Source of the DNA: Chiloscyllium plagiosum
Lineage: Eukaryota
DNA: 64,000 bases
Assembly (NCBI RefSeq): GCF_004010195.1
Contig: NC_057726.1
Location: forward strand, 57,977,559 to 58,041,558
Reading direction: 5' to 3'
Position 1 is the stretch's first letter. Each line of letters opens with the position of its first letter. The notes below the pieces were generated by a model. The model was given only the letters and a program-made list of their open reading frames with translations. It searched no databases and was not told the DNA's origin. Made by a program: the position numbers and the translations under genes. Positions 13,884-59,300 of the stretch are shown one piece after another.

Positions 13884-14930
13884 CAGAGATTCATAGAGAT
13901 GTACAGCATGGAATCAGACCCTTCGGTCCAACGAATCCATGCCGACCAGATATCCCAAATCAATCTAGTCCCACCTGCCAGCATCCGGCCCATATCGCTC
14001 CAAACCCTTCCAATTCATATACCCATCCAAATGCCTCTTAAATGTTGCAATTGTACCAGCCTCCACCACATCCTCTGGCAGCTCATTCCATACACGTACC
14101 ACCCTCTGCGTGAAAAAGTTGCCCCATAGGTCACTTTCATATCTTTCCCTTCTCACCCTAAATCTATGCCCTCTTGTTCTGGACTCCCCGACTCCAGGCA
14201 GAAGACTTTGTCTATTTACCCTATCCATGCCCCTCATAATTTTGTAATCCTCTNNNNNNTACTCTGACCAATAAAGGAAAGCATACCAAACACCTTCTTC
14301 ACTATCCTGTCTACCAGTGACTCCACTTTCAAGGAAATATGAACCTGCACTCCAAGGTCTTTTTGTTCAGCAACACTGTCTAGGACCTTACCATTAAGTG
14401 TATAGGTCCTGTTAAGATTTGCTTTTCCAAAATGCAGCACCTCGCATTTATCTGAATTAAACTCCATCTGCCATTCTCAGCCCATTGGCCCATCTGGTCA
14501 AGATCCCATAATATAAGGTCACCCTCTTTGCTGTCCACTACACCTCCAATTTTGGTGTCATCTGCAAATTTACTAACTATACCTCTTATACTCGCATCTA
14601 AATCATTTATGGAAATGACAAAAAGTAGAGGACCCAGCACCGATCCTTGTGGCACTCCACTGGTCACAGGACTCCAGTCTGAAAAACAACCACCACCACC
14701 ATCCTCTGTCTTCTATCTTTGAGCCAGTTCTGTATCCAAATGGTTAGTTCTCCCTGTATTCCATGAGATCTAACCTTGCTAAATCAGTCTCCCATGGGGA
14801 ACCTTGTCAAACGCCTTACTGAAGTCCATATAGATCACATCTACTGCTCTGCCCTCATCAATCCTCGTTGTTACTTCATCAAAAAACACAATCAAGTTTG
14901 TGGGGCATGATTTCCCACGCACAAAGCCAT
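13884..14930 (-). mobile_element. CR1/HER1 LINE 3' part (6-nt N gap at 14254-14259)
   Basis: SGVPQGSVLGPLLF...SKFADDTKIGG RT motifs, RTRGHRFRVR...NFFTQRVVRVWNELP, and 3' tail at the left end. Confidence 0.9.
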
Positions 14931-19989: not shown

Positions 19990-21055
19990 AGCACATAGTA
20001 TTAGAAATGAGATGTAAGCATCAATAGAGGATTGGCTAACTGACAGGAAAGAGAGTGAGGAAAGTGTATCATTTTGAGGTTGGTTAACTAACTGATGGAG
20101 TGTTGCAAGGATCCATGCATGGGATCTCAACTAGTTGCAATCTCCATTAATTACTTGGATTAAGGGTCAGATTACATTATTGTCGACAAATTTACTGACA
20201 ATTGAAAGATAGATCAGAAAATAAACTGTAAGAAGGATACAAAATGCCTGCAGAGACATGTAGTTAGGTTAAGATAGCAAAACAAAATGGCAGATGGCGT
20301 AAAATGGGAGGTTGTCCACTTTGGCAGGAAGAATGAAAATAAACTGTAAGAAGGATACAAAATGCCTGCAGAGACATGTAGTTAGGTTAAGATAGCAAAA
20401 CAAAATGGCAGATGGCGTAAAATGTGGGAAAATGGGAGGTTGTCCACTTTGGCAGGAAGAATAGAAAAGCAGAATATTATTTAAATGGAGAGAGACTGCA
20501 AAACACTGTGGTACAAAAGGTCTGGGTAGGTATTGATGACATTGGTGTGACGGCTGAGACGGCACCTGGACAGTTTTAGTCTTGATGAAGGATATATGTG
20601 CATTGGAAGAATTTCAGAGACAGATGGCTAGGCTGATTCCTGGCATGAAGGAATTATCTTTGAGACGATTGGGCTTACACTCGTTGGAGTTCGGAAGAAT
20701 GAAGTGATCTTACTTAAACATGTAAGATTCTGAGAGGGTAAATGCTGAATGTTTCCTCTCATAGAATGAGGGGGGTAATTTCAAAACAGGGCAATTGCCA
20801 TTTAAGATTGAGGCAAGGAGAAATTTCTTCTCTCAAAGGGTCATTAGTCTTTCAAATTCCAAAGGGCAGTGGTAGCAGAGCCATTGAATATATTTAATGC
20901 TGAGTTCAACAAATTTTTGATTAATAAGGAATCAATAGTTCAGGGAAATAGGTAGGCAAGTGGAGTTAAAGCCAAATCAGATCAGGCATGATCTTACTGA
21001 ATGATAGAACAGCATGATGTGGTCAAATGGCCTATTCCGGTTTTTATTTCTTATG
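19990..21055 (+). mobile_element. Degenerate CR1 LINE
   Basis: GGAGTGTTGCAAGGATCCATGC (GVPQGS-like), AAATTTACTGACAA (KFADD-like), GAGAAATTTCTTCTCTCAAAGGGT (RNFFSQRV) and CR1 3' UTR. Confidence 0.7.
20217..20462 (+). repeat. Tandem duplication (~118 + ~128 bp)
   Basis: GAAAATAAACTGTAAGAAGGATAC...GGCAGGAAGAAT occurs twice in tandem, identical apart from a 10-nt indel. Confidence 0.9.
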
Positions 21056-21183
21056 ACAAGATCAGAAGGATGTTGCTAATGAATGTACGAGATCAAACTC
21101 CCAGTCTTGTCCCCAGTGCAGCAAGACCTGGACAGCATTCAGGCTTGGACAGAAAACTGGCAAGTAACATTGAAGCCATATAT

Positions 21184-21208
21184 GGTGGGAGTAACTATGA
21201 CTCTTTTA
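21184..21208 (+). rRNA. 25-nt 28S rRNA fragment immediately upstream of the R2 target site (not an rRNA gene)
   Basis: GGTGGGAGTAACTATGACTCTTTTA vs conserved 28S GGCGGGAGTAACTATGACTCTCTTA(AGG): 23/25 identical, both differences C>T. Confidence 0.85.
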
Positions 21209-21354
21209 GACACGTCTGTTTTGGGAATCTTGCCTGGCTAGTTCCTGCTCAGTAGTTTTTACACAATTTTGTCTGCTGTAGCAAATGGCATTCCTCCTCG
21301 AGGTTCCGGCTGGAAAGAGCACTCCTCTCGGCTATTGGATGGCTAAATATGACC
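21184..21354 (+). ncRNA. HDV-like self-cleaving ribozyme of an R2 5' end (decayed)
   Basis: P1 5' GGUGGGA (21184-90) / 3' UCCGGCU (21305-11) with a G-U wobble at the cleavage site; P3 UCC/GGU; L3 UCCUCGA; J1/4 GG; J4/2 GCUAA (catalytic C at 21343); P2 GGCAU / AUGaCC. Confidence 0.75.
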
Positions 21355-22497
21355 TAGAAAAATTGCGAGACGGCTGTTTGGTCTGCATGGATCACAACTC
21401 TTATCCTCCAAGTATCACACACAAAAAAGACTATACAAGATGGAGACAGTTAAAGACTCTCATCAGTCCCGTAGGGATGTGTCTCGGAAGAAAATAACCT
21501 CCCGGCAGGCTTAGTGGTAGTGACCTGTGAAAAGTGCAGATACCACATTAGAAGAGAATCCATCTCCACCCAAACACAGGAGATGGCAGAGAGTCCCAGC
21601 GTATGCATCCCCATTAACTGTGTGAGTCAAGGTCGGGTCAGGCCGATAGGACCTAGAGTGGCCATAGAAGACACAAAGCCTGTCGTAGAAGAGAATATGA
21701 GGGCAGCCCTCCCTATGGATCAGGTTATCGCAACTCAAATCTTCTACAACAGAAGATACAACAAAAGGGCTAACAAGATATATGAGCTATTGGACACAGA
21801 CATCGGAGATGACGACTTATATCGATCCAGTCATAACTGAGCCCTCATTTGACAAAACAAGGAGGTCACGATCCACTATCCTACAGATGGTCTGTTTTGT
21901 GTAATCTGTAACTCCCTCCTTCCAACCATAGGGGCATTTAGACAACATTTAGTCAAGATACATCAGGTCAAGAACATTCTTAAAATGCAAGAGCAAAGAA
22001 TATCACGCTATCGAATGTCACTGCATGAAATGTAATGGCACTGGCCCTTCTAAACTATCAGGAGCCTTCACATGCTCAGGATGCAAGTTAACATTCACAT
22101 CCAACACTGGCCTTGGCCAATACAAATGCAATAAGCATGCAGAATATCACAAGGAGGAGCACCTAGAGTGCCTCAAGACAACAGCCAGACCAGGAAATGG
22201 ACGGAAGAAGAGACAAACCTTGTCCATTAGTTGGAACAGCAGTATGCAGGTTGCACCTTTATCAACAAAAAGATAGCCAGTATCCTAACTACAACACACT
22301 TCAACAGATCTCGGACAAGTGTAGGACACTGCAAAATAACAATGAGGGACCCCAAGCCACAGTGACCAAACCTCCAGAGACCACCCTAACAGAAGACTCT
22401 GAAGACAAATCCTCAGGTGTCCAACAGCAAAAAAAAAAGTCAGACTGCCCACCTGCACTCCTAAACACCAAGATTTGGATGACTAAATTACACAGAA

Positions 22498-24469
22498 AAA
22501 GAGAGAAGTGGGAAGTTGTGTATGGACGCTGTGGAGATCGGAGAGGTGCTAAACAAATATTTCTCATCTGTTTTCACTCAGGAAAAGGAGAATATTGTAA
22601 AGGAGAAGAATTAAATACAGGATATTAGACTAGAAAGGATCGAGGTTTGTAAGGAAGAGGAGTTATCAATTCTAGGAGTGAAAGTAGACAAATCCCCTGG
22701 GCCAGATGGGATTTGTCCGAGGATTCTCTGAGAAGCTAGGGAGGAGATGTTGGAGCCTTTGGCCTTGATCTTTGAGTCATCATTGTCTACAGGTTGAGTA
22801 CCAGAGAACTGGAGGATTGTAAATGTTGTGCCCTTGTTCAAGAAGGGCAGTAGAGATGACCCAGATAATTATAGATCAGTGATCCTTATGTCTGTTGTAG
22901 GAAATGTTTTGGAAAGAATTATAAGAGACAGGATTTATAATCACCTAGCAAGTAAAAATTTGATTGTAGATAGTCAACATGTTTCGTCAAGGGCTGGTCA
23001 TGTCTCACAAACCTCATGGAGTGTTTTGGGAAGGTGACCAAGCACATGGATGAGGGTAGGGCAGTTGACGTGGTGTACATTGTCTTCAATACAGCCTTTG
23101 ATAAGGTTCCACATGGTAGGCTGTTGGAGAAAATGGAGAGGCATGGGATTGAGGGTGATTTAGCAGTTTGGATAAGAAACTGGCTTTCTGTAAGAAGGCA
23201 GCAAGTGGTGGTAGTCTGGAGTCCAGTTACTAGTGGTGAGCCACAAGGATCTGATTATATTAGATTAGATTCCCTACAGTGTGGAAACAAGCCCTTTGGC
23301 CCAACAAGTCCACACCGACCCTCCGAAGAGTAATCCACCCAGACCCATTTCCCTCTGACTAATGCACCTAACACTGTGGGCAATTTAGCATGGCCAATTC
23401 ACCTGACTTGCACATCTTTGGACTGTGGGAGGAAACCGGAGCACCCGGATAGAAACCCACACAGACACGGGGAGAATGTGCAAACTCCACACAGACAGTT
23501 GCCCGAGGCTGGAATTAAACCTGGATCTGTTTTGGGACCACTGGTATTTGTCATTTTTATAAATGACTTGGACACAAGCATAGGTGGATGGGTTAGTAAG
23601 TTTGCAGATGACACTAAAGTCAGTGGAGTGGTGGACAGTATGGAAGAATTTTGCAGGTTGCAGGGGGACTTGAATAAACTGCAGAATTGGGCTGAGAGAT
23701 GGCAAATGAAGTTCAATGCAGATAAATGTGAGGTGATTCACTTTGGTAAGAATAACAGGAAGGCAGAATACTGGGTCAGTGGAAAGATTCTTGGTAGTGT
23801 GGATGTGCAGAGGGATCTTGGAGTCCATGTACATAGATCCCTGAAAGTTGCCACCCAGGTTGGTAGTGCTGTTAAGAAGGCATACAGTGTGTTAGGTTTT
23901 ATTGGGAGAGGGACTGAGTTCCAGAGCCGCAATGTCATGCTGCAACTATACAAAACGCTAGTGCGGTCACACTGTGTACAGTTCCGGTTGCCCCATTACA
24001 GGAAGGATGTGGAAGCATTGGAAAAGGTGCAGAGGAGATTTACCAGGATGTTGCCTGGTCTGGAGGGAAGGTCTTATGAGGAAAGGCTGTTCTCATTGGA
24101 AAAAAGAAAGCTAAGAGGGGATTTGATAGAGACATACAAGATGATCAGAGGATTGAGTAGATAGTGAAAGTCTTTTTCCTAAGATGATGATGTCTGCTTG
24201 TACAAGGGGGCATAGCTACAAATTGACGGGTGATAGATTTAAGACAGATGTCAGAGGCAGGTTCTTTATGTAGAGAGTGGTAAGGGTGTGGAATGCCCTG
24301 CCTGTCAATGTAGTTAACTCAGCCACATTAGGGACATTTAAACAATCCTTGGATAAACACATGGATGATGATGGGATAGTGTAGAGGGATGGGCTTAGAT
24401 TAGTTCACAGGTCGGCGCAACATTGAAGGCCGAAGGGTCTGTTCTGCGCTCTATTGTTCTATATTCTAT
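22498..24469 (+). mobile_element. CR1 LINE (RT through 3' UTR) nested in the R2 remnant
   Basis: PLFKKGSRDDPDNYR, AFDKVPHGRLL, SKFADDTKV, RGDLIETYKMIRG, tail TATTGTTCTATATTCTAT. Confidence 0.9.
23254..23522 (-). mobile_element. 5'-truncated HE1 SINE inserted in CR1 with 7-bp TSD
   Basis: GGATCTG at 23247-23253 and 23523-23529 flanks the SINE and splits the CR1 PQGS-VLGP motif. Confidence 0.9.
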
Positions 24470-24689
24470 GAAATGCACATCAAATTATGTTTCTGGCCAT
24501 GGCAAACTAACTGGGGCGGCCTGTTGGCTCTGCATTTCCCATTGCACAGTGGCTGCTTTAGAAGATCATTGCTGGTGCATTGGCCCGGGATGTCCCTAGT
24601 CCCTTCACCCTTAGATACTCTGGCTACATGGAATTTCTAAAACATCAACAAGTGACATTAAAACTTGATTATGGCAAGTGTTCAAAATT

Positions 24690-25340
24690 GCAAAGCAGTG
24701 AACACCACAAGAAAGCAAGAATCCAACCAGCTCCCTTTGATGTCCATTCCCATTGCTGAGCTCTCCACAATCAACATCCTGGTGCTAACTATCGACTAAA
24801 AACTGAACTGGACCAAAAGCATAAATACTGTAGCTACAAAAGCAAGTCAGACTCTCAGAATTCAAGGGAGTAACTCATTTCCGACACCTCAAAGCCTGTC
24901 CACACTCTACAAGGCACAAGACAGGGATATGCTGGAATTTTCCTAATTCTTTGAATAAGCGCAGTTCCAACAACACTCAAGAAACTCAACACCATTCAGT
25001 ACAAGGCAGCCCACTTGACTGGCACTACATCCATCACCTTAAACATTCACTCACTGCATTATCATGCAGATAGGTATGTATTATACATAAGATAAACTGC
25101 ATCAACTCAACTAAGCTTCTTCAAACAGTACTTTGCAAAGCCCTATCCTATACCACCTAGAGAAGGAAGCACAGTAGATACATGGCTTAAAATCCTGGAA
25201 TTCCTTTCATAATGGTATTGTGGGTGTAACTGGACCAAATGACTTAGTGGTTTAAAGAGGCACTCACCCACACCTTCTTAAAGGCAGCTAGGAACAAGCA
25301 GCAAATGCTGGCCTTGCCACAGACACCCACAATTATAAAA
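24690..25340 (+). mobile_element. L2/CR1-group LINE 3' part; continuation of the piece at ~21110-21183
   Basis: Homologous to 25800-26490 and to the minus copy 45250-46750 (CTCAAAGCCTGTCCACACTCTACAAGGCACAAG). Confidence 0.65.
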
Positions 25341-57349: not shown

Positions 57350-59300
57350 GGGGGAGTGGCGTTTTTGATAAGGGATAGCGTTACGGCTGTGCTGAGGGAG
57401 GGTATTCCCAGAAATACATCCAGGGAAGTTATTTGGGTGGAGCTGAGAAATAAGAAAGTGATGCTCACCTTATTGGGATTGTATTATAGACCCCCCAATA
57501 GTCAGAGGGAAATTGAGAAACAAACTTGTAAGGAGATCTCAGCTATCTGTAAGAATAATAGGGTAGTTATGGTAGGGGATTTTAACTTTCCAAACATAGC
57601 CTGGGATTGCCATAGTGTTAAATGTTTAGATGGAGTGGAATTTCTTAAATATGTACAAGACAATTTTCTGATTCAGTATGCGGATGTACCTACTAGAGAA
57701 GGTGCAAAACTTGACCTACTCTTGGGAAATAAGGCAGGGCAGGTGACTGAGATGTCAGTGGGGGAGCACTTTGGGACCAGTGCCATAATAGTATTCGTTT
57801 TAAAAAAGTGATGGAAAAGGATAGACCAGATCTAAAAGTTGAAGTCCTAAATTGGAGAAAGGCCAATTTTGACGGTATTAGGCAAGAACTTTCAAAAGCT
57901 GATTGGAGACAGATGTTTGCAGGTAAAGGGACGGCTGGAAAATGNNNNNNNNNNNNNNNNNNNNNNNNNNNNNNNNNNNNNNNNNNNNNNNNNNNNNNNN
58001 NNNNNNNNNNNNNNNNNNNNNNNNNNNNNNNNNNNNNNNNNNNNNNNNNNNNNNNNNNNNNNNNNNNNNNNNNNNNNNNNNNNNNNNNNNNNNNNNNNNN
58101 NNNNNNNNNNNNNNNNNNNNNNNNNNNNNNNNNNNNNNNNNNNNNNNNNNNNNNNNNNNNNNNNNNNNNNNNNNNNNNNNNNNNNNNNNNNNNNNNNNNN
58201 NNNNNNNNNNNNNNNNNNNNNNNNNNNNNNNNNNNNNNNNNNNNNNNNNNNNNNNNNNNNNNNNNNNNNNNNNNNNNNNNNNNNNNNNNNNNNNNNNNNN
58301 NNNNNNNNNNNNNNNNNNNNNNNNNNNNNNNNNNNNNNNNNNNNNNNNNNNNNNNNNNNNNNNNNNNNNNNNNNNNNNNNNNNNNNNNNNNNNNNNNNNN
58401 NNNNNNNNNNNNNNNNNNNNNNNNNNNNNNNNNNNNNNNNNNNNNNNNNNNNNNNNNNNNNNNNNNNNNNNNNNNNNNNNNNNNNNNNNNNNNNNNNNNN
58501 NNNNNNNNNNNNNNNNNNNNNNNNNNNNNNNNNNNNNNNNNNNNNNNNNNNNNNNNNNNNNNNNNNNNNNNNNNNNNNNNNNNNNNNNNNNNNNNNNNNN
58601 NNNNNNNNNNNNNNNNNNNNNNNNNNNNNNNNNNNNNNNNNNNNNNNNNNNNNNNNNNNNNNNNNNNNNNNNNNNNNNNNNNNNNNNNNNNNNNNNAGGT
58701 TAGATCTTATGGAATACAAGGAGAACTAGCCATTTGGATACAGAACTGGCTCAAAGGTAGAAGACAGAGGGTGGTAGTGGAGGGTTGTTTTTCAGACTGG
58801 AGGCCTGTGACCAGTGGAGTGCCACAAGGATCGGTGCTGGGTCCTCTACGTTTTGTCATTTCCATAAATGATTTGGATGTGAGCATAAGAGGTACAGTTA
58901 GTAAGTTTGCAGCTGACACCAAAAGTGGAGGTGTAGTAGAGAGCAAAGAGGGTTACCTCAGATTAAAACAGGATCTGGACCAGATGGACCAATGGGCTGA
59001 GAAGTGGCAGATGGAGTTTAATTCAGATAAATGCGAGGTGCTGCATTTTGGGAAAGCAAATCTTAGCAGGACTTATACACTTAATGGTAAGGTCGTCTGG
59101 AGTGTTGCAGAACAAAGAGACCTTGGAGTGCAGGTTCATATTTCCTTGAAAGTGGAGTCGCAGGTAGATAGGATAGTGAAGAAGGCGTTTGGTATAGGTT
59201 AGGTGCAGGCAGGTGAGACTAGATTGGGTTGGGATATCTCGTTGGCATGGATAGGTTGGACTAAAAGGTCTGTTTCCATGCTGTACATCTCTATGACTCT
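57350..59300 (+). mobile_element. CR1/HER1 LINE spanning an assembly gap
   Basis: LGLYYRPPNSQRE, VMVGDFNFPNI, SGVPQGSVLGP; internal deletion near 59195 before the 3' UTR. Confidence 0.9.
57945..58696. other. Assembly gap (N run)
   Basis: 752 N. Confidence 1.

Follow-up and report, generated by a model that had tools for sequence, protein, structure and literature searches.

R2 is the textbook example of a strictly site-specific retrotransposon, normally found only in ribosomal RNA genes, and R2 proteins of the A lineage are under development for gene insertion, where the rules of off-target integration matter. The closest described relatives of the element studied here are the vertebrate lineage-A R2s (R2Tg in structures 9dou and 9nl3, the 9nl2 protein, and R2-1_STig, R2-1_SCa and R2-1_CCar in Table S2 of PMC13188248; all papers are cited here for the available parts of their texts). 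Our copy is like them in its ZF3-ZF2-ZF1-Myb order, its 28S leader from position -28 and its candidate HDV-like 5' end, but it lies outside rDNA, is dead and has neither reverse transcriptase (RT) nor endonuclease. R2 is already known from sharks through R2Sqj (PMC5035012) and the survey PMC13188248, so that the preliminary description of this DNA, which was made from the sequence alone, went too far in treating R2 activity in a chondrichthyan as something newly evidenced by this locus. In the available part of Table S2 of that survey, the Chiloscyllium entries belong only to another R2 family (P0002-like, family III below).

Copies outside the ribosomal locus have also been described. In Drosophila, R2 and R1 likewise have off-target copies (Stage and Eickbush 2009, PMC2718515); melanogaster-type R1 elements that are full-length and lie outside rDNA retain upstream 28S of 7-28 bp and sometimes a downstream 28S tail, and the off-target R1 sites share 4-9 bp of identity with the target. 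Drosophila R2, according to the same text, is "seldom" outside its locus and frequently incomplete, whereas the shark has dozens of such copies, many of them full-length, with a hot spot in CR1. The flatworm elements R2NS-1_SMed and R2NS-1_CSi are also dispersed outside 28S, but the R2NS families are R2D or R2C elements that lost specificity (PMC5035012), whereas the shark lineage still uses the 28S site and keeps a partial preference. Off-target insertions made by avian R2 proteins in human cells (PRINT; PMC11371274) resemble the shark copies in that TPRT took place where sequence complementary to the primer lies directly downstream of the nick; the human-cell sites are described as having little other identity with rDNA, whereas the shark fossil sites also have an upstream 28S-like motif, and the two patterns thus appear to agree only in part. 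A 2026 review counts very few R2 elements without canonical specificity and considers a binary classification into site-specific or not to be likely too simple (PMC13580325). Our literature searches turned up no dispersed R2 set and no CR1 hot spot described from a shark, although subscription papers, Repbase/Dfam and supplements could contain such a description. The element family, shark R2 and rare R2 copies outside rDNA are known already; what deserves attention is that targeting leaks and has a hot spot in CR1.

The locus lies in a stretch of 64,000 nt from Chiloscyllium plagiosum (the window), where an insert of 3,504 nt (21184-24687; all features are on the plus strand unless stated) is a decayed copy of a lineage-A R2. 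Its two ends and its flanks confirm the reading of this insert as a dead, apparently once full-length, off-target R2 whose middle has been replaced by a CR1. The 5' part (21184-22492) aligns with 177 bits to a profile built from younger sister copies (positions 1-1364 of 4353 columns) and matches a paralog (C19) at 73%. It opens with a leader derived from 28S rRNA (21184-21209): measured against the 28S of the same genome, the first base, 21184, corresponds to position -28 when counted from the R2 nick, the match continues to about -3, and no 28S sequence lies upstream. Position -28 is the most frequent cleavage site of R2 ribozymes, that of zebra finch included (PMC3774820), and 21184 would correspond to the 5' end of a ribozyme-cut R2 RNA. 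In the decayed HDV-like region (21184-21353), P1 would be formed from the leader, and P2, P3/L3 and P4 are recognisable. When HDV-like helices are fitted to an alignment of 15 such 5' ends, 80% of the cells pair, versus 31-51% in slid controls; covariation across the same 15 ends was no better than in shuffles, Rfam gave no ribozyme match in the window (gathering threshold) or in the 5' end of a young copy (by E-value), and the MFE fold of 21184-21345 (z = +0.64) is uninformative for a decayed pseudoknot. The HDV-like ribozyme is therefore best called a candidate, consistent with these data but not proven by them.

The preliminary description had regarded the retained 5' end as unusual. The 5' end is indeed retained, but among 35 leader-bearing loci, a set partly found by searching with the leader itself, the leader starts exactly at -28 in 20 and within -28 to -25 in 28. 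A genome search with the leader pattern gave 35 matches (30 inspected) versus 9 for a control. A kept 5' end is common among the ectopic sister copies.

Downstream of the leader, the remnants of the lineage-A domains follow one another in the expected order, although decayed: ZF3 (CCHH; 21898-21963, CVIC..HLVKIH), ZF2 (CCHC; 21986-22033, first Cys of the CxxC lost), ZF1 (CCHH; 22073-22138, CSGC..GLGQYKCNKH, first His changed to Tyr) and the Myb domain (22198-22325, one stop and one frameshift). All the peptides listed in the preliminary description are present, spread over three frames. A 70-residue piece (21998-22207) compared with structures finds A-lineage R2 proteins as its best PDB matches (9dou, R2Tg, E = 9.6e-6; 9nl3, 1.5e-5; 9nl2, 3.3e-4); the chains 8gh6/8ibw have E = 1.1, and outside R2 the best match has 0.097. 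When 45 homologous proteins were searched with tblastn, the best single matches on the R2 5' part came from an avian and a bamboo-shark protein. Among the structures the peptide compares best with zebra-finch R2Tg, and the assignment to lineage A that had been made from the letters alone stands, with a ZF3-ZF2-ZF1-Myb remnant closest to R2 structures and a leader from -28. Pfam gave sub-threshold zinc-finger matches or none on the zinc-finger and Myb pieces. Utopia elements are without the R2 Myb in the available account (PMC13188248), and the Myb remnant together with the 28S leader would argue against Utopia, NeSL or Hero. A host zinc-finger gene is ruled out by the R2 matches, the 28S leader and the R2 3' UTR.

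That 3' UTR (24470-24687) is complete to the 3' end. Its stretch 24476-24667 matches the 3' UTR of the near full-length paralog C19 at 69%, two further paralogs match at 76-83%, and the terminal GTGTT(T)CAAAA is common to the window copy and its sister copies; the suggestion that 24470-24690 is residual R2 sequence was correct, with the true end at 24687 rather than 24690. Between the two R2 parts, and adjoining R2 sequence on both sides, lies a 5'-truncated CR1 LINE with a microsatellite tail (22493-24469; RVT_1 E = 6e-9; 5' boundary uncertain by about 10 nt), which contains a SINE on the minus strand (23254-23522), presumably HE1, with a 7-bp target duplication. The CR1 and then the SINE arrived later, as had been proposed, and the nesting shows the order LINE, R2, CR1, SINE. 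About 2.8 kb of R2, comprising RT, thumb, knuckle and endonuclease, is missing, with CR1 in its place and 218 nt of 3' UTR left. These parts can be followed in paralogs. The RT, absent from the window copy, matches 9nl3/9dou in L093 with E of about 2e-69 (LINE-1, 1e-11); L009 and L011 match R2 proteins by tblastn; the C-terminal CCHC knuckle and restriction-like endonuclease, also absent from the window copy, are visible by eye in the nearest paralog, L009, where tblastn covers the region; and the translation of C19 displays RT, knuckle and endonuclease motifs.

The sequence on either side of the insert belongs to one older LINE, which we take to be of the L2/CR1 group, a label drawn from DNA matches to a very common repeat and from protein motifs. 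The left half of the target site (21102-21183) lies in the RT/thumb region and shares with the 28S target the motif AGTAAC, placed at about -21/-22 relative to the junction, and the right half (24688-25030) continues in register and in the same reading frame. A LINE copy elsewhere in the window gives the correct register (left flank 45987-45919, right flank 45911-45808), but the left flank scores 33 against this copy alone, with a shuffle maximum of 34. The join is instead established by genome copies: in 12 of the top 14 non-self copies, taken from 40 matches to a repeat with 4,395 candidates, the two flanks adjoin, with left scores of 46-74 versus shuffle maxima of 30-36.5, and in the other two the left flank has no match above shuffles. 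R2 thus split an older LINE, as the preliminary description had it, although its in-window comparison would not have sufficed. Pfam gave at most sub-threshold zinc-finger matches on the two flanks. That the flanks remain in one frame would fit a blunt insertion without target duplication. The insertion site is only a weak mimic of 28S, with two mismatches to GGGAGTA, a matching AGTAAC and a right flank that begins with TTGC rather than TAGC, and taken by itself it makes a weak case for target preference. Because the flanks are one LINE and 28S sequence is limited to the leader, we class the copy as an off-target derivative of an R2 lineage and not as a canonical insertion. A decayed rDNA orphon is ruled out for this copy by the continuous LINE. 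Such orphons do exist elsewhere in the genome (L014, L102, L103, L105 and L189).

The locus had been framed as a singular event, a view that the dozens of ectopic copies in the same genome contradict. Three groups of R2 can be recognised: the window copy belongs to the old family I (with C19, C29, C4, C37, C2 and C15); family II has a length of about 4.28 kb and 83-90% identity among young copies; and family III, which sits canonically in 28S fragments, corresponds to a bamboo-shark R2 already published (P0002), whose C-terminal 689 residues it matches at 72%. By eye, the 5' end of family II is similar to that of zebra-shark R2-1_STig, which has upstream 28S in the available part of PMC13188248 Table S2. 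Searches with the younger sister family, which is 55-60% identical to the window copy, gave at least 42 and at least 43 matches (40 scored in each case, of 51 and 72 candidates), and the Myb-RT stretch of a sister copy matches a catshark protein at 59%. In a tree of the 5' 1.3 kb, by which alone the window copy is placed as it has no RT, it forms a group with C19 (support 0.98) and C29 (1.0) that is the sister of family II, and its terminal branch is long (0.24, where most family-II copies have 0.03-0.13). The tree is ladder-like in shape, and among the dispersed copies listed identity to one copy is continuous from 91% to about 70%. None of 20 loci of dispersed copies has an intact ORF, the longest real one being 479 aa in family II (the long ORFs of L094 are N artefacts and were disregarded). 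Internal deletions are common among the sister copies. The locus in the window is one old, heavily broken and weak example of this dispersed set.

The genome-wide count of copies outside rDNA proposed in the preliminary description can be given as a minimum: there are at least 49 distinct 3' junctions (45 from the younger sister family and four from the window's own group; L126, identical to L125, was left out), of which at least 46 are without downstream 28S. Thirteen of the 49 lie at one site in the RT region of CR1, and three continue into 28S, one in 28S itself and two with short 28S tails. The other 33 begin with T in 29, A in 24, G in 15, C in 13 and C in 15, to be compared with TAGCC in the target, although the T at +1 may derive from the RNA tail. 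The empty CR1 site occurs exactly 1,250 times in the genome (control, 0) and has GGGAGTA 26 nt before TAGACC, where 28S has it 25 nt before TAGCC. Since the copies at this site are scattered over the tree, we regard them as independent insertions; this scatter and the differing 5' junctions rule out a composite of CR1 and R2 that spread as a unit. Away from CR1, GGGAGTA with at most one mismatch is present in the 40 nt upstream of 11 out of 28 copies, versus 5.2% of 560 control windows, in a test for which three motifs were tried after the data had been seen, which left out L139 (no leader found) and seven CR1-site copies, and in which some matches may stem from remnants of the leader or from microhomology at the 5' join (L088, L117). 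Most of these site statistics come from the younger sister family and not from the window's small group. The 3' ends of the sister copies are precise and uniform, and there is no target duplication. The N-terminal domains of A-clade proteins bind only upstream target DNA (PMC11204384), and the upstream motif bias would fit this property. It is likely that the dispersed copies record where R2 landed when its usual target was missed.

Several observations connect this lineage with rDNA. L014, which matches the 5' UTR of the window copy, and the family-II copy L189 each lie between 28S sequence on both sides, in register, and the lineage thus inserts at the canonical 28S site. Two 5'-truncated copies at non-28S sites, L176 and L113, carry downstream 28S tails of 63 and 15 nt, as expected for rDNA transcripts that read through. 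In younger copies a decayed older leader is preceded by a fresh, near-perfect one from 28S, an arrangement that matches a published model of leader duplication (PMC3774820, Fig. 8 legend). Across 800 codons in 38 family-II copies, internal branches carry 834 synonymous and 639 nonsynonymous changes and 18 stops, and terminal branches 1243, 2186 and 142 (p = 1e-43 versus internal), a contrast indicating that the backbone of the tree is under purifying selection; together with the ladder-like tree, it is what one would expect of a master lineage that is under selection and sheds dead copies. As no family-I or family-II element was seen in an intact rDNA array in this assembly, we infer the rDNA source of the lineage.

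We consider it probable that an rDNA-resident R2 used its own target-primed insertion to leak into degenerate sites resembling 28S, and that the window copy was copied into a LINE site that partly mimics 28S, its middle being lost when or after CR1 landed. What the sequences show is the two ends of R2, the point where the leader begins, the joining of the flanks, the order of nesting, and sister copies that are dispersed and biased in their sites; from these we infer the following steps. The element would have been co-transcribed with 28S and its RNA cut at -28 by the HDV-like ribozyme, so that the RNA began with 28 nt of 28S; the R2 protein would have attached to a degenerate motif upstream and made its nick at a T-A-G-like position that allowed pairing with the RNA tail; and copying would have reached the very 5' end, where the leader, with no 28S available for annealing, was retained as added sequence in a blunt join without duplication. 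The insertion of CR1, or recombination between two CR1s, may then have removed the 2.8 kb, and the SINE would have come after. Such a full-length insertion with later loss of the middle was one of two alternatives in the preliminary description and is the one we favour, the sister copies showing a target preference that makes the other, capture at a break, less likely.

The possibility that R2 RNA or cDNA was caught at a random DNA break, or was moved by CR1/L2 machinery without R2 target recognition, draws on the poor 28S mimicry of the window's own site, on the abundance of LINE machinery in this genome and on the fact that a 28S-like leader would be kept in this case as well. This reading is already weakened at the level of the family, where 3' ends are precise and uniform without target duplication, the TA(G) and upstream-motif bias is strong and 13 sister copies share a single CR1 position, and we hold it to be very unlikely. 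It is highly improbable that the copy was internally deleted before insertion, like the described non-autonomous SIDEs (PMC3414825), with CR1 landing later at the deletion join: the ends needed in cis are both retained and the sister copies often carry internal deletions, but CR1 adjoins both breakpoints, and instead of multiple copies with one shared join, no second copy with this join was found among the paralog matches.

A further reading, which we judge unlikely, is that the lineage moved out of rDNA to become a dispersed family that propagates itself, like R2NS, with the 28S leader as its own 5' end and the CR1 site as its second home. The 46 or more junctions without downstream 28S, the continuous range of identities and the lack of a sighting in an intact rDNA array agree with this, and the ribozyme would be complete with the leader outside rDNA. 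Whereas R2NS elements are recognised by having neither 28S-site insertions nor target preference, this lineage has canonical insertions (L014, L189), 28S tails (L176, L113), a TA(G) and upstream bias and the CR1 hot spot. Moreover, a fresh leader before a decayed one needs transcription from rDNA, stops accumulate on terminal branches, and the 20 dispersed loci examined hold no intact ORF.

Under the favoured reading of an rDNA-resident element that leaks, the dispersed copies preserve, as fossils, the past of an rDNA element whose traces are normally removed by turnover of the rDNA. They represent dozens of datable misfires in the germline, in which the 5' ends mark the ribozyme cut and the sites can be reconstructed, giving a testable off-target motif. 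We suggest, tentatively and at somewhat less than even confidence, that a lineage-A shark R2 has a real second target, a single position in the RT gene of an abundant CR1 that mimics the 28S site and that would have taken about a quarter of the insertions outside rDNA over the whole history of the lineage. The fossils may then serve as a natural germline screen for off-target insertion, in which upstream DNA recognition, and not only pairing of the 3' tail, would set where R2 misfires, and the CR1 site may represent a stepping stone out of rDNA.

Within the window, two features lie apart from the decayed R2 copy: a tandem duplication of ~120 bp (20217-20468), 92% identical, which falls within a CR1-like fragment upstream of the copy, and two runs of N at 14254-14259 (6 bases) and 57945-58696 (752 bases), both of which are distant from it.

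Elsewhere in the genome, many 3' ends of family III, the R2 that matches the published bamboo-shark element, adjoin pieces of 28S sequence ranging from 39 to >1,200 nt on chromosome-scale contigs (loci L146-L175), and these joins represent orphons or read-through copies. A more distant R2 copy (L188:758-4906) is followed by a 28S piece whose start precedes the nick site, the R2 target position in 28S, by ~14 nt. Family II, the younger sister of the group to which the window copy belongs, includes a 5'-truncated copy with a 63-nt 28S tail that lies within a (TG)n microsatellite (L176:6124-6860).

Another family-II copy, L141 (G000:C5:91321000-91329000), has as its 5' flank the CR1 region of the hot spot, the position taken by 13 of 49 R2 3' junctions, in reversed orientation. 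The RT and 3' flank are identical between L125 (C28) and L126 (C1), and a gap of ~437 bp occurs in both L125 and L130 (C12), at an identical position in R2; assembly chimerism or recent duplication are possible explanations for this sharing.

Among family-II 5' ends, for example those of L090 (1993-2190), L087 and L092 set against those of L120, L127 and L144, the younger copies have a perfect new 28S leader that precedes the decayed remnant of an older one. These doubled leaders are a fossil case of the model in which the R2-ribozyme 5' end is extended by duplication.
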